Notes under the pieces: model-generated
The model's input: only the letters and a program-made list of their open reading frames with translations
Told to the model about the DNA's origin: nothing
Databases searched by the model: none
Shown: in pieces, positions 21,185 through 26,010 of the stretch
How positions within the stretch are numbered: position 1 is the stretch's first letter
How the letters are laid out: every line of letters begins with the position of its first letter
Source of the DNA: Actinomycetes bacterium
GTDB lineage: Bacteria > Actinomycetota > Aquicultoria > UBA3085 > Oleimmundimicrobiaceae
Direction of reading: 5' to 3'
Assembly (NCBI GenBank): GCA_030614255.1
Contig: JAUWKI010000003.1
Location: 15,368 to 79,367, forward strand
Length of the DNA: 64,000 nt
Program-made: the position numbers and the translations under genes

Positions 21185-22248
21185 AAAAAGATTCCAGAGC
21201 AAGCAAAAGGCGGGAAAAAAAGCAAAAATTAAGACGCCGAATTATGCTTATTGTTGGCGCTACGCTAATCGTTGCTTTGCTTATCGGGGTAGTTGGTTCT
21301 CATTTCTTTGGAGATGGAGATGCCGATAATCTTGCTACCTCAAACTCTTCGGCTACAACTTCGAATAAGAATGCTAAAGTGGATGACTCTTCCTCGAAAC
21401 CGGAGCTTGGTGACTCAGTCATTTTCCTGGTAATGGGCGTACAAGACGAGAATGGCGAAGAACTTGTGGTTGAAACGCTGGCCCTATTTTGTGATTTAAA
21501 AGCGGGCATTTTAAATGGGATATCTGTTCCAAAAGATACTATTATTGAGATTCCGGGGTTAGGTTTTGAAAGAGTTAGCGAGATGCTTTCTTTAAAGAAG
21601 GATTCAACAGCAGTATCTGCCGTTCAAAATCTTTTCGGGGTCGAGCTTCATGGCTATGCAAAATTAGACCTTTTTGATCTCGAGAGAATTATGGATAAGA
21701 ACGATTTTGAAAAAGTATTTGATAAGGCAAAAAGTTCGGATATTATATCGGAGCATCAAGAGAAGATATCATTGGCAATTGCCTCGATGGATCACCATGA
21801 AGATATAAATATTTTGCCCCTTCCCGTAAAAAATCATGCGGTGGGAGATAAAATCTATTATGAGCCCAACAGAGAAGAGCTGGAAGGACTGCTCGCACGT
21901 CTTTGGGGAGTAGAAGTTGAACAGTCTGAGAAAACAAAGGTTATGGTTTTAAATGGATGTGGGGTTCCCGGAGTTGCGGGAGAAGTTGCGGATAAGCTGA
22001 TAAATATGGGATACCAGGTAGTGGGCACAAAAAATGCGGATAATTTCAGTTACAAAGAGACTCAAATATTAGTTTATGGCGACAATGATGATGCCGCAAA
22101 CGACATTCAGAAAGCGTTGGGGGTAGGTATAATTATCGATCGGGCCATCACCCAGGAAGTAACTGATATTGTTGTGGTCGTGGGGAAAGATTATAATTTT
22201 GATGAAGAGCAAGATTCTGACGAAGATTTTCATGAGGAAGCAAATTAA
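21142..22248 (+). CDS. Membrane protein with degenerate LCP-like domain and LytR C-terminal domain (start uncertain)
   Basis: Basic N-terminus plus TM; ISVPKDT; VMVLNGCGVPGVAGEVA...NAD...DIVVVVGKDY. Confidence 0.8.
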   Translation: MELDSTGEDRRRTLKKDSRASKRREKKQKLRRRIMLIVGATLIVALLIGVVGSHFFGDGDADNLATSNSSATTSNKNAKVDDSSSKPELGDSVIFLVMGVQDENGEELVVETLALFCDLKAGILNGISVPKDTIIEIPGLGFERVSEMLSLKKDSTAVSAVQNLFGVELHGYAKLDLFDLERIMDKNDFEKVFDKAKSSDIISEHQEKISLAIASMDHHEDINILPLPVKNHAVGDKIYYEPNREELEGLLARLWGVEVEQSEKTKVMVLNGCGVPGVAGEVADKLINMGYQVVGTKNADNFSYKETQILVYGDNDDAANDIQKALGVGIIIDRAITQEVTDIVVVVGKDYNFDEEQDSDEDFHEEAN

Positions 22249-22267
22249 GCAAGGAGGCGATTGTTTA

Positions 22268-22639
22268 CTGAACGCTAAAGAAATTGCGAGGATGGCTGCG
22301 GATGCGGCGGTCGGCAAAAAAGCTGAAGACATCATCATTTTAGACTTGAGCGATCTGTTGGGAATTGTCGATTACTTTGTAATCTGTGAAGGTAAAAATG
22401 ATCGACAGGTTGATTACATTTCGGACTCAATTAAAGAAGAGTTGAGAAAAGACAGAGTAAAACCGTTCGGGGTTGAAGGAAATGGTAGAGCAGGATGGGT
22501 TTTGCTCGACTATGGCAGCGTGGTTATTCACGTATTTACAACTGAGGTGAGACAGTACTATCAAATTGAGCGTCTCTGGAAAGATGCGCCTCAACTTGAG
22601 TGGGAAGAAACTTCCCGGCAAAAAGCAAACGCAGAATAA
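22268..22639 (+). CDS. rsfS: Ribosome silencing factor RsfS (probable CTG start at 22268)
   Basis: KKAEDIIILD, DYFVIC, WVLLDYGSVVIHVF, YYQIERLW; SD AGGAGG at 22252-22257. Confidence 0.93.
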   Translation: MNAKEIARMAADAAVGKKAEDIIILDLSDLLGIVDYFVICEGKNDRQVDYISDSIKEELRKDRVKPFGVEGNGRAGWVLLDYGSVVIHVFTTEVRQYYQIERLWKDAPQLEWEETSRQKANAE

Positions 22640-22641
22640 TA

Positions 22642-22670
22642 TTGACATAGTTAAGCTGCTTTTATATAAT
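22642..22670 (+). promoter_or_regulatory. Consensus sigma70 promoter driving the T-box/tRNA leader
   Basis: TTGACA(22642-47)-17 nt-TATAAT(22665-70), a perfect consensus. Confidence 0.9.
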
Positions 22671-22859
22671 AATTTGGCAATTAAATACGGAGCTTTGAAG
22701 AAGAGCAGTAGACCTTAGACAAGATTTTAGAGAGTTGGGATGGTGGAAACCAATATCTGGTCGAGTCGAATTTATCTCTAAGCTTGGAGCTAAAAGTCAT
22801 TGTGCTATTAAGCTTCGCGTTTAGTAAACATTAAGTCACCAAAAGAGAGCGAGTTTTGT

Positions 22860-22934
22860 GGGGATGTAGCTCAGTGGGAGAGCGCCTCCTTGGCGTGGAG
22901 GAGGCCGAGGGTTCAATCCCCTCCATCTCCACCA
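22860..22934 (+). tRNA. tRNA-Ala(GGC), nested in the T-box leader
   Basis: Acceptor GGGGATG/CATCTCC with G3:U70, A73, encoded CCA; anticodon stem CCTCC/GGAGG with loop TT-GGC-GT; T-loop GTTCAATC. Confidence 0.97.
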
Positions 22935-22971
22935 ATTTATATCGCTAAATAGGGTGGTACCGCGAAAGAAT

Positions 22972-23002
22972 CCTTTCGTCCCTTTGGGTGAAAGGTTTTT
23001 TT
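22972..23002 (+). terminator. T-box intrinsic terminator
   Basis: CCTTTCGTCC-CTTT-GGGTGAAAGG-TTTTTTT. Confidence 0.85.
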
Positions 23003-23084
23003 GTTAGTTTTGTAAAGTACCAGTTTATCTGATGTATATATTTTAAATGAAGCATTTTTATTAAATTTTAATTTGTTCATTTTT

Positions 23085-23390
23085 TTGCGCGCCTACTCGC
23101 TTACTCTCGCAGAGCGAAATCGCTATTTACCCTTCGGGCACGCGATTCCTGTCTGCCCTGCCTACCGGCAGGCAGGGTGCCGCTTCTACTCGAGTTTCAC
23201 TCGTTTAACGGTGTGCTCAGAGTCACTCCAAGCAAGAGCCACGAGATGTTTTAAAAGCCACAAAATCTATAAAGACTCTATTGGTTTTTCTAAGGGCTAA
23301 AGGCTGGGGGGGCTAATGGCTAGAGGCTGTTTTAAAAAGCTCTTTTGCTTTTCCTGGTGGCTGAAAGCTGGCAGCTGGAGGCTGAAAGCT
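23085..23390. repeat. MITE-like repeat remnant with CCTGCCTACCGGCAGGCAGG palindrome (23157-23176), then a GCTGAAA/GCTGGCA heptamer array
   Basis: 23121-23252 aligns with 39345-39482; heptamers at ~23295-23390. Confidence 0.8.
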
Positions 23391-23547
23391 ATATTTTAAT
23401 GATATAATATTCCAATCACTGGCTCTGACGATAAAATTGAGACCAGATACTGATTAATGATTTAGCTAAAAAGTGAGACCAACTTGAGTTGGCAAGATAT
23501 CGCTCGCATCGGGGCGGAAGTTTATACCAGTTTCTATTGGAGGCAGT

Positions 23548-26010
23548 GTGGAAAAGTACGATTTTGCGCGGATTGAGAAAGAGTGGCAGAAAAAGTGGGA
23601 AGAATCGAAGATATATGAGGTCTCAGAAGATTCTGCGCAAAATAAAAAATATATCCTCGAGATGTTTCCATATCCTTCAGGGAACATCCATATGGGCCAC
23701 GTAAGAAACTATTCCATCGGTGACGTCGTTGCCCGTTATAACAGGATGAGGGGCTACAATGTACTTCATCCAATTGGCTACGATGCTTTTGGCATGCCGG
23801 CTGAAAATGCGGCGATAGCCCACGGGGTTCATCCCAAGAAGTGGACTACCAAGAATATTGATATCATGCGAAATCAATTAAGAGGCCTGGGTTTGAGCTA
23901 TAACTGGGATCGTGAAATCACAACCTGTGAGCCGGATTATTATAAATGGGGCCAATGGTTGTTTCTGCAGTTCTACAAAAGAGACTTGGTATATCGCAAG
24001 AAAGCCAAGGTAAATTGGTGTAATTCTTGCGAAACAGTTCTTGCTAATGAACAAGTTGAAGCGGGAGGTTGCTGGAGATGTGGTACTCCGGTTGAGCCGA
24101 AAGAGCTTGCGCAATGGTTCTTCAATATCACAAATTATGCCGAACCCTTATTAAAAGATCTTGATAAACTCCCGGGTTGGCCTGAGCGGGTCAAGGTTAT
24201 GCAGAAGAACTGGATTGGCAGAAGTGAAGGAGCTTGGGTTGATTTTTCATTGAAGGACGGTGAGACTGTCACCGTCTTTACAACGCGACCTGATACCCTT
24301 TTTGGCTGCACGTTTTTCTTGCTTGCTCCAGAGCATGCTCTCGTTGATGAACTCATCAAAGACACTCCTTATAAAGACGAGGTTGTGAAGTTTAGAAAAA
24401 AAGTTGCCAAAGAGACCGAGATAGATAGAACATCTACTGAAATTGAAAAGAATGGGTGCTTTACCGGAGCGTATATTATAAATCCCGTAAACAGAAAAAA
24501 GATACCGATTTGGGTAGCCGATTATATTCTCATGGAATACGGAACAGGAGCGGTCATGGCGGTTCCTGCCCATGATGAGAGAGATTTTGCTTTTGCCAAG
24601 AAATACAATCTTCCCATTGAGCCGGTTATCCAGCCGACAGGTGAAGATTTTAGTTTGGGTCTCAAAGAGGCGTATGTGAGCGAAGGAGTAATGATAAACT
24701 CCGGTCAGTTTACCAATATGCCCAGCAAAGAGGGAGCAAGAGCGGTAACCAAATGGTTAAAGAAGCAGGGTAAGGGCGATTTTGCGGTGAATTACCGCCT
24801 ACGTGATTGGTTGATTTCTCGCCAGCGTTACTGGGGCAACCCAATACCTATAATTTATTGTGATGAGTGTGGTGTAGTTCCTGTTCCCGAAGAAGATTTA
24901 CCGGTCGTATTGCCGGACGATGTGGAGATTACGGAAAAAGGCGGCTCTCCTTTAGCTAAACATGAGAGCTTTGTGAACACGACGTGTCCGAGATGCTCTA
25001 AGCCCGCCAAACGGGAGACCGATACTATGGATACCTTCACTTGCTCTTCGTGGTATTTCCTTCGTTATACAAGTCCTCATGAAGACAAAGGGCCCTTCAG
25101 TGTTGAGGCGGCTAATTACTGGATGCCTGTCGACCAGTATATCGGTGGCATCGAACATGCGATTATGCACCTGCTATACTCTCGTTTTTTTACTAAAGTT
25201 ATGAAAGATATGGGTTTGTGCGATGTTGAGGAACCATTTTCCAACTTGTTAACCCAAGGGATGGTTATAAAAGACGGGGCCAAGATGTCTAAATCTAAAG
25301 GCAATGTGGTTGATCCCAATGAGATAATCAAAACCTATGGAGCAGATACCGCAAGATTGTTTATCCTTTTTGCTTCACCTCCGGAAAAAGAACTCGAATG
25401 GAGTGATCAGGGAGTTCAGGGCTCTTACAGGTTTTTAAACAGGGTTTGGAGAATCGTTAAAAAGAATATAGAAGCTTCAAAAACGGATAGAAAATCCAAG
25501 TTGGATGAGGTTGACAGAGAACTCCAGAGGGTAATTCATCGAACGGTAAAGAAAGTTACAATCGATATCGAGCGCTTCAATTTAAACACAGCCATAAGCG
25601 CGACAATGGAACTCGTAAATGCCAATCATAAATATTATGATGATAAAAATGAAGTAGAAGTAAATTCGGAGATATTAGCCGAGGCCAACGAAAAGTTGCT
25701 ACTCACTCTCGCTCCTTTCGCTCCCCATATCACCGAAGAGCTATGGAAAATGACGGGAAAGACGGAGAGTGTTCATCGTGCCAATTGGCCGGTTTTTGAT
25801 GAGAAGCTTGCAAAAGCTGAAGAGATAGCTCTCATTGTCCAGGTTAATGGTAAGGTGAGGGACAAGATAACGGTCTCTGCAGATATAGGAGAGGAAGAGA
25901 TGAAAGAAGTCGCGCTTTCCAGTGAAAGACTGAGGCAGTTTACTAAGGGGAAGGAAATTGTTAAAGTGATAGTTATTCCAAAAAAACTTGTCAACGTGGT
26001 TGTGAGGTAA
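23548..26010 (+). CDS. leuS: Leucine--tRNA ligase
   Basis: [32 protein letters not shown]. Confidence 0.98.

Follow-up and report, generated by a model that had tools for sequence, protein, structure and literature searches.

The T-box is the standard textbook example of an RNA that recognizes tRNA in trans. tRNA genes can also share a transcript with other genes: in the tRNA-tufB operon of Escherichia coli and in the spacers of rRNA operons, the tRNA is co-transcribed with its partner and then freed by RNase P and 3′ processing. According to passages of a 2020 review of T-boxes (PMC7583486), the 5′-RRRNG-Stem III-AA-3′ frame is part of the discriminator that senses aminoacylation, and unexplained insertions occur in every T-box domain. 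Here we describe a locus in a stretch of 64,000 nucleotides from an Actinomycetes bacterium (contig JAUWKI010000003.1 of assembly GCA_030614255.1). This stretch is called the window below, and positions are counted from its first letter. In it, Stem III of the T-box leader of leuS, the gene for leucyl-tRNA synthetase (LeuRS), has a complete tRNA-Ala(GGC) gene as its loop. There is strong support for this structural reading and for an old, conserved architecture. T-box and tRNA each belong to known families; it is their combination that we did not find described. A full-text literature search, which left early comparative surveys and supplements uncovered so that an earlier mention is possible, returned no tRNA gene within a T-box; the original prediction, which had been made from the sequence without database searches, likewise named no described case.

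The leuS T-box leader and its nested tRNA

The leader was recognized as a T-box with the tRNA left in place. Its match to RF00230 extended over all 219 model positions with a score of 92.5 bits (E = 5.2e-21), and Stem I, Stem II, Stem IIA/B, Stem III and the antiterminator with its UGGN bulge followed one another in order from end to end. This score is just below the gathering score of 93, because of the penalty for 85 nt inserted in the Stem III loop, where the model has 5 nt and where the tRNA lies. The default Rfam threshold misses the T-box in the window, and a local RF00230 search recovers it. The AGCGA and TCGCT strands that had been proposed to close Stem III are exactly the Stem III strands of the model, with the tRNA as a loop insertion. 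The RRRNG-Stem III-AA frame of the discriminator is complete at 22843-22948, and a ViennaRNA fold of 22678-23003 predicted Stem III (pair probability ≥0.97), the cloverleaf and the terminator together.

The elements on either side were also where they had been claimed to be (Table 1). Downstream of TCGCT, the UGGUACC bulge is followed by a hairpin and seven T, and the 3′ strand of the antiterminator (22975-22983) overlaps the 5′ strand of the terminator (22972-22981), making the two folds mutually exclusive. Upstream, the promoter matches the consensus at every position. It is the sole plus-strand promoter-like site in 22134-23367 by a sigma-70 consensus scan, which, looking for sigma-70-like sites only, found none between 22671 and 22859.

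The tRNA scored 68.6 bits against RF00005 (gathering score 29), and ARAGORN read its anticodon as GGC. By the same program it is the only tRNA in the whole window and the sole Ala(GGC) among the 44 tRNA genes of the genome (1.44 Mb in 52 contigs, 97.2% complete); the other alanine tRNAs come down to a single Ala(CGC) elsewhere, Ala(UGC) being missing from the assembly. CCA is encoded in all 44 of these tRNAs and U(-1) is present in 31, and the nested tRNA likewise has an ACCA 3′ end and U(-1). The G3:U70 pair, an identity element for alanyl-tRNA synthetase, is G.U in 28 of 28 aligned loci, and the earlier description of an intact tRNA-Ala with this pair and CCA stands. By these features the nested tRNA-Ala(GGC) qualifies as a genuine gene, and as neither a spare copy nor a pseudogene.

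Bacterial RNase P favors U(-1), and the genome encodes a type A RNase P RNA (282 bits). We examined the nucleotides preceding the tRNA in 60 loci picked by pattern or by similarity to the window, whose counts describe the nested class and in which related loci are non-independent. U(-1) was found in 48/60, R(-2) in 53/60 and C(-3) in 39/60, with T at -4 to -6 in only 17-22/60, and A73-CCA was encoded in 44/60. The conserved C(-3), R(-2) and U(-1) fit a maintained RNase P substrate.

Covariation was assessed in 28 of these 60 usable loci, selected for short linkers. They were aligned from the purine string to the antiterminator with MAFFT, without fitting to a structure, and pairs were counted for the structure read from the window's row. 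All six pairs of the Stem III closing helix change on both sides, for example G-C in 21 loci with A-U in 4, or A-U in 14 with G-C in 10, and 88.2% of the cells of this helix are paired. The whole structure was paired in 97.1% of cells, compared with 81.5% after shuffling (0 of 500 shuffles reached the observed value) and 46-54% when slid by 1-3 columns; all four tRNA helices were 100% paired.

An anchored test took the 5 nt directly 5′ of the conserved AA and sought perfect pairing within 35 nt upstream of the tRNA. The 5-bp helix was present in 52/60 loci, with 38 distinct helix sequences, compared with 841/3408 swapped partners, and an RRRNG-type pentamer stood directly before its 5′ strand in 40 of the 52 helix-positive loci. 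Without the anchor, looking for the longest helix that the flanks could form gave no information (mean of 6.75 bp versus 5.9 bp in shuffled or swapped flanks). The linkers between Stem III and the tRNA range from 0 to 30 nt, with 155 nt in one relative. This variation speaks for a tRNA that folds on its own as a passenger, in a loop that tolerates it, and against a rigid part of the sensor. In the relative with the longest linker (G016; L011/L174), the 155 nt lie between the tRNA and the 3′ strand of Stem III, about 170 nt separate the tRNA from the T-box motif, and the T-box match is full-length at 89.7 bits.

A chimeric assembly, or a tRNA lying merely beside unrelated T-box-like sequence, could also account for the arrangement, and both the metagenome-type assembly in 52 contigs and the T-box score 0.5 bit below gathering speak for such an artefact. 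Misassembly is contradicted by contigs from four public runs of three studies, which bridge both tRNA junctions in the region compared (22500-23700). One 3273-nt contig, whose run is possibly the source sample, matches 22500-23116 with 0 differences, and contigs of two further studies span both sides of the tRNA (22534-22891 with 22886-23093, and 22801-22994). The contigs are not identical throughout: in a variant strain, 22943 C>T turns the Stem III pair into G.U and so preserves it. Given also the 28 other loci with the same nesting and the covarying closing helix, we attach a negligible probability to artefact or coincidence.

Table 1. Features of the leuS leader region, in window positions
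Feature	Positions	Strand	Basis
Sigma-70-type promoter, TTGACA-17 nt-TATAAT	22642-22670	+	12/12 consensus matches
T-box leader, whole-model match	22686-22986	+	RF00230 positions 1-219
Stem I, including AGAGA bay, distal loop, specifier loop and K-turn region	22692-22783	+	Model and homologue alignment
Specifier loop, 3′ side: GAA, UUU (22771-22773), purine A	22768-22774	+	Homologues, model codon columns, MAFFT
Stem IIA/B region with altered F-box	22818-22833	+	Model alignment, homologue alignment
AAGAG purine string (RRRNG element) preceding Stem III	22843-22847	+	Sequence
Stem III 5′ strand AGCGA	22848-22852	+	Pair probabilities 0.97-1.0; covariation
tRNA-Ala(GGC) gene with G3:U70, A73 and encoded CCA	22860-22934	+	ARAGORN, RF00005
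Stem III 3′ strand TCGCT, conserved AA (22947-22948) directly 3′	22942-22946	+	
Antiterminator: helix A1, T-box bulge UGGUACC (22955-22961), helix A2	22951-22983	+	Model alignment, sequence
Intrinsic terminator: 10-bp stem, 4-nt loop, seven U	22972-23002 (hairpin 22972-22995)	+	
Dispersed repeat resembling a miniature inverted-repeat transposable element, between terminator and leuS, outside the switch and inside the transcription unit	23087-23380	Not assigned	
leuS, leucyl-tRNA synthetase, 820 aa, GTG start	23548-26010	+	Pfam

Nested leaders in other bacteria

The nesting recurs well beyond the window. A survey for tRNAs between Stem I and the T-box motif, which the original prediction had suggested for related genomes, gave full-length RF00230 matches across the tRNA in 29 loci, that is, in 28 besides the window; 15 of the 29 are above the gathering score. 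The widest part of this survey was a scan of one genome per species in 185,579 species, using as a pattern a tRNA T-arm 22-52 nt upstream of a T-box motif. It delivered at least 80 loci, and all the counts that follow hold among the 80 matches listed. A same-strand ARAGORN tRNA is overlapped by 57 of these, and it is tRNA-Ala(GGC) in 54; the other three are Asp, Thr and Glu tRNAs without a T-box, so that no nested tRNA of another type was found among the matches listed. Together with L094, whose tRNA was placed by ARAGORN across locus ends, there are at least 55 Ala(GGC) loci. A leuS gene on the same strand follows in 53 of the 55; the remaining two extend past the end of their locus.

The taxon labels of these 55 loci, used as given in the records, are Chloroflexota-type in 32 (Thermomicrobiales, Limnocylindria, Chloroflexia, Anaerolineae, Ktedonobacter, Caldilineae and others), Bacillota-type in 17 (Syntrophomonadaceae, Thermosyntropha, Peptococcaceae, Desulfofundulus, Thermacetogeniaceae and others) and other in 6, which are contigs of metagenome-assembled genomes. 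Two carriers are cultured, Thermosyntropha lipolytica DSM 11003 and Desulfofundulus thermosubterraneus DSM 16057. When 22 of the scan loci were analyzed with cmscan, a full-length T-box spanned the tRNA in 21 (11 above gathering), and the exception is cut by a contig end. Full-length matches spanning the tRNA reached 130.9 bits in T. lipolytica and 108 bits in G017, a member of the window's class. BLAST found one close copy of the tRNA per genome in three named carriers, a search that a divergent second copy could escape.

No ARAGORN tRNA overlapped 23 of the 80 listed matches, six of which were inspected (L052, L055, L062, L082, L100 and L107). Two of these, L062 and L107, do show the nesting and are truncated by a contig or locus end. 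L055:526-817, on a Chloroflexia-labelled contig, was rejected as a chance match to the pattern; it is a 292-nt Trp-type T-box (GAA-UGG-A) with a long Stem III region and no tRNA. Two matches labelled Ureibacillus and Oribacterium were likewise set aside as ordinary T-boxes without a tRNA.

Closer to the window, BLAST of 22640-23010 against 100 related genomes matched three same-family genomes over nearly the full length, and gave matches to the tRNA and antiterminator in other families of the class. Of 20 related loci analyzed with cmscan, 5 had a T-box across the tRNA, and in a sixth, from G001, the match stops at the tRNA. The exact nested pattern is present in 6 of 48 species genomes of the class; with G003, which has a variant motif, G016 and G031, at least nine class genomes in 5 of 20 families carry the nesting. 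Among 17 class loci without a clear T-box, no more than two gave a cmscan match, G001 with its relic of 52 bits that stops at the tRNA and G031 with a weak one of 32 bits. G008 has kept the tRNA and the T-box motif, and its Stem I is undetectable.

The linkage of the tRNA to leuS is wider than the nesting. Among 30 class leuS loci, tRNA-Ala(GGC) is found within 900 nt upstream in 18 (15 on the same strand and 3 inverted), and a T-box motif follows the tRNA in 8. In the inverted cases, L190 (G035), L192 (G041) and L199 (G019), the tRNA-Ala(GGC) is on the opposite strand, no more than 370 nt upstream of leuS, and no T-box was detected in these three loci. Outside the class, three same-phylum genomes combine rsfS, a promoter, tRNA-Ala(GGC) and leuS and lack a T-box altogether.

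We built an unrooted LeuRS tree from 82 of 85 rows, three having been dropped for short or interrupted matches. Chloroflexota-labelled nested loci form one clade (31 rows, support 97) and Bacillota-labelled nested loci another group (14 rows, support 91). The window's class and its phylum relatives make up a third (33 rows, support 98), in which nested and non-nested loci are interleaved within the class. By its LeuRS, the window's genome is placed as sister to Bacillota-labelled loci. On this tree the nested label changes five times, and at least three of the changes are forced by well-supported branches. Separate LeuRS clades are what vertical descent predicts. The simplest reading is that the nested arrangement is old and would have been inherited vertically, with repeated loss of the T-box and retention of the tRNA-leuS linkage, a direction of change that we infer.

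Two observations concern leuS itself. The LeuRS of L030 (G073), a same-phylum locus without a T-box, groups with a Ktedonobacter-labelled locus with a support of 99, which hints at a transfer of leuS. G001 has a second leuS-like match (contig C133, 602-1699; 59% identity), preceded by a match to the tRNA and the 3′ part of the T-box. As G001 is listed at 5% contamination, C133 may be a foreign contig with an intact nested leader.

A probable composite unit and the state of its sensor

We consider it probable that the locus works as a composite unit, in which one strong constitutive promoter drives a leuS T-box leader with a passenger tRNA-Ala(GGC) in its Stem III, the tRNA is part of every transcript, the T-box gates leuS and processing releases the tRNA. 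As the terminator lies downstream of the tRNA within the leader, every transcript from the leader promoter would carry the tRNA whatever the decision of the T-box, which would for the same reason gate only leuS. Ancestrally, a CUC specifier would be read by uncharged tRNA-Leu. RNase P and 3′ trimming would release the tRNA from terminated and read-through transcripts alike. Its excision would separate the discriminator from the sensing half (Stem I, Stem II and Stem IIA/B), and leuS mRNA from read-through transcripts would then begin shortly before the terminator hairpin.

The leader would thereby double as the pre-tRNA-Ala, RNase P and 3′ processing separating Stem I from the antiterminator. 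This part of the proposal is well supported, because the genome has no other Ala(GGC) gene, there is one promoter upstream and none predicted in the leader, the tRNA has U(-1) and CCA, and the genome encodes an RNase P RNA. Stem III would turn its loop away from the functional core, so that a self-folding 75-nt domain would be tolerated there, and the nesting may have persisted for so long because neither of the nested parts could be removed without harm to the other. A pairing in cis between the ACCA of the nested tRNA and the UGGU bulge was considered and dropped, as Stem III lies between them. We infer co-transcription, the processing steps and the regulatory outcome from sequence.

The specifier was reassigned in this analysis. 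In 46 of the 60 loci, GAA-CUC-purine is followed by a 3-5-nt stem strand and then by the K-turn NGA, and in Thermosyntropha the CUC falls in the codon columns of RF00230; the nested leaders of both cultured carriers are of the CUC type. The ancestral specifier thus appears to be CUC, a Leu codon, as expected upstream of leuS. In the window, 22768-22783 aligns as GAA-UUU-A-UCUC-UAA-GC both to the RF00230 model and to the homologues with MAFFT. The specifier had originally been read as CUC or CUA; this assignment fails, as the CUC at 22776-22778 belongs to the 3′ strand of the lower Stem I helix, homologous to the CCUC of the relatives, and the specifier is UUU.

A number of observations weigh against the composite unit as we propose it. 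In the window, UUU codes for Phe and not for the Leu expected before leuS, the K-turn reads UAA on its 3′ strand (22779-22781) compared with NGA in 46 of 60 relatives, and the F-box has changed from the CGUUA of relatives to CAUUA, a G-to-A change; with a score 0.5 bit under gathering as well, the sensor looks damaged. Among relatives, the nearest one, G001 of the same genus, retains the tRNA together with Stem I, and its T-box motif and antiterminator are gone; G004, of the same family, and at least five other class members have the tRNA alone before leuS; and the nested pattern gave 0 matches in 369 same-phylum genomes outside the class. Downstream of the terminator, a gap of 550 nt holding a repeat and an extended -10-like TGATATAAT (23400-23408, found by eye) separates the leader from leuS, whose transcription may be independent of the leader and start from the TGATATAAT site, bypassing the T-box. 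An internal promoter of a non-sigma-70 type may also precede the tRNA.

The changes in specifier, K-turn and F-box are all C-to-U or G-to-A. By the usual rule the window's leader would be typed Phe, and the UGGU bulge is unable to discriminate tRNA-Leu from tRNA-Phe, because all species of both in this genome end in ACCA. The leader is a T-box member by descent, with a doubtful working Leu specificity for the copy in the window. The sensor half appears to be eroding in this genome, and the locus may serve mainly as a leader and attenuator for the tRNA.

In its full form, this alternative holds that the T-box here is a relic that no longer senses tRNA-Leu; promoter, leader, tRNA and terminator would then be a tRNA-Ala(GGC) cassette, and leuS would be transcribed by constitutive leak-through or from its own promoter downstream of the inserted repeat. 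We take it as a serious possibility, though at somewhat less than an even chance. The altered K-turn and F-box agree with it, as do the specifiers of the family, UUU in the window's genome (G000) and in G003 and UUC in G001 compared with CUC in G002 and in most of the 60 loci. So do the partial match of G001, the lack of a recognizable T-box in G004, the repeat and the TGATATAAT site between terminator and leuS, and the 8 T-box motifs after the tRNA in 30 class leuS loci, compared with 18 nearby tRNAs. On the other hand, the antiterminator, the UGGU bulge, the RRRNG-Stem III-AA frame and the terminator are intact, and the leader as a whole still matches its model with an E value of 5e-21. Contigs of three runs carry UUU unchanged, and two of them have 22780 A>G, giving UGA and restoring the GA of the K-turn strand. 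By reasoning only, UUU could also pair with the GAG anticodon of tRNA-Leu through one A-U and two G.U pairs.

The opposite possibility is that the nested tRNA is a working part of the switch, either as a kinetic delay of ~95 nt between Stem I and the decision point, which would leave tRNA-Leu longer to bind, or as an RNase P handle that makes the decision irreversible and sets leuS mRNA stability. Nesting persists in both the Chloroflexota- and the Bacillota-labelled clades, with the same tRNA in the same place (54 of 57 listed tRNA-overlapping matches, the remaining three lacking a T-box). Passages of two papers lend it some plausibility: transcriptional T-boxes decide in a short time window (PMC7583486), and in the Bacillus subtilis thrS T-box leader, cleavage just upstream of the terminator stabilizes the mRNA, the hairpin being protective (PMC7913692). 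The predicted 5′ end of the leuS mRNA is the same outcome as that of thrS leader cleavage. However, linkers of 0-30 nt, and once of 155 nt, fix neither geometry nor delay; T-boxes of most lineages work without such an insert, and no nested form appeared in the 369 same-phylum genomes outside the class; and the repeated loss of T-box parts with retention of the tRNA is the pattern of a tRNA as the constrained partner. We therefore regard it as unlikely. We are equally reserved about its evolutionary version, a selected ancestral composite in the Chloroflexota- and Bacillota-type loci, in which the tRNA would lengthen the decision window and RNase P excision would be integral, splitting the sensor irreversibly and making a stable, hairpin-capped 5′ end of the leuS mRNA; this seems improbable to us. 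A composite unit with a passenger tRNA remains our preferred reading.

The surroundings of the unit are as follows. The leuS product has a LeuRS editing domain (1e-70), a class I synthetase core and an anticodon-binding domain by Pfam, and the genes upstream of the leader are nadD-like, HD-domain, LytR_C and rsfS genes, also by Pfam. The repeat downstream of the terminator gave 26 blastn high-scoring segment pairs in its own genome, the best with 91% identity over 293 nt (contig C15). Metagenome contig depth rises to 568 at the repeat compared with 42 in the flanks, and contigs break at 23087 and 23157. A comparable GGCTG-rich stretch occupies this position in G003. The TGATATAAT site, which lies past the repeat and 140 nt short of the leuS GTG, was not listed by the promoter scan because it has no -35 match. 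The genome holds three further T-box leaders of normal length, at C50:1515-1739 (142 bits), C10:12653-12899 (109 bits) and C48:176-446 (109 bits).

Significance and comparison with known systems

The locus adds a T-box with a tRNA in cis as well, at a constant position and in numerous genomes of at least two deep bacterial groups. It offers a natural system in which a riboswitch folds around a large, independently folding domain, in which RNase P processing may compete with or complete a transcriptional decision, and in which use would be made of abundant terminated leader transcripts. For annotation, it matters that the tRNA insertion pushes nested leaders under the Rfam gathering score. The relatives, from intact to half-lost to tRNA-only, suggest a stepwise decay of a riboswitch around a gene that cannot be lost, and the two cultured carriers make the nesting approachable by experiment. 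Should the selected composite be true after all, one transcript would link the supply of a tRNA with that of a synthetase.

Canonical transcriptional T-boxes (RF00230), such as those of Bacillus aminoacyl-tRNA synthetase genes, have in common with this leader Stem I with its specifier, Stem II, Stem IIA/B, the RRRNG-Stem III-AA frame, the UGGN antiterminator, the terminator and a downstream synthetase gene. They differ from it in that the Stem III loop here holds a tRNA gene of another amino-acid family (85 nt compared with 5 nt) and in that the window's specifier is mismatched to the regulated gene. The tRNA-tufB operon and the rRNA spacer tRNAs likewise have one promoter, one primary transcript and a processed end for the partner, which is predicted here; those tRNAs lie outside riboswitches, with no RNA decision flanking them.

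Among T-boxes with additional parts, the staphylococcal glyS T-boxes also carry an extra element, stem Sa, in the discriminator region of a standard T-box. Such insertions (PMC9177973, PMC7583486) are plain helices not known to have a role of their own, whereas the element here is a gene for a separate RNA of an essential type that needs to be excised. Leader processing after the decision is also known. Besides the cleavage of the thrS leader, passages of PMC7913692 describe RNase P cleavage of the pbuE adenine riboswitch and RNase III cleavage of the Staphylococcus aureus met leader. In these systems the leader is cut after the decision and a 5′ hairpin can set mRNA stability. In the nested leader the cleavage is predicted, and it would differ from all three in that its signal would be a genuine tRNA and the excised piece a functional product.

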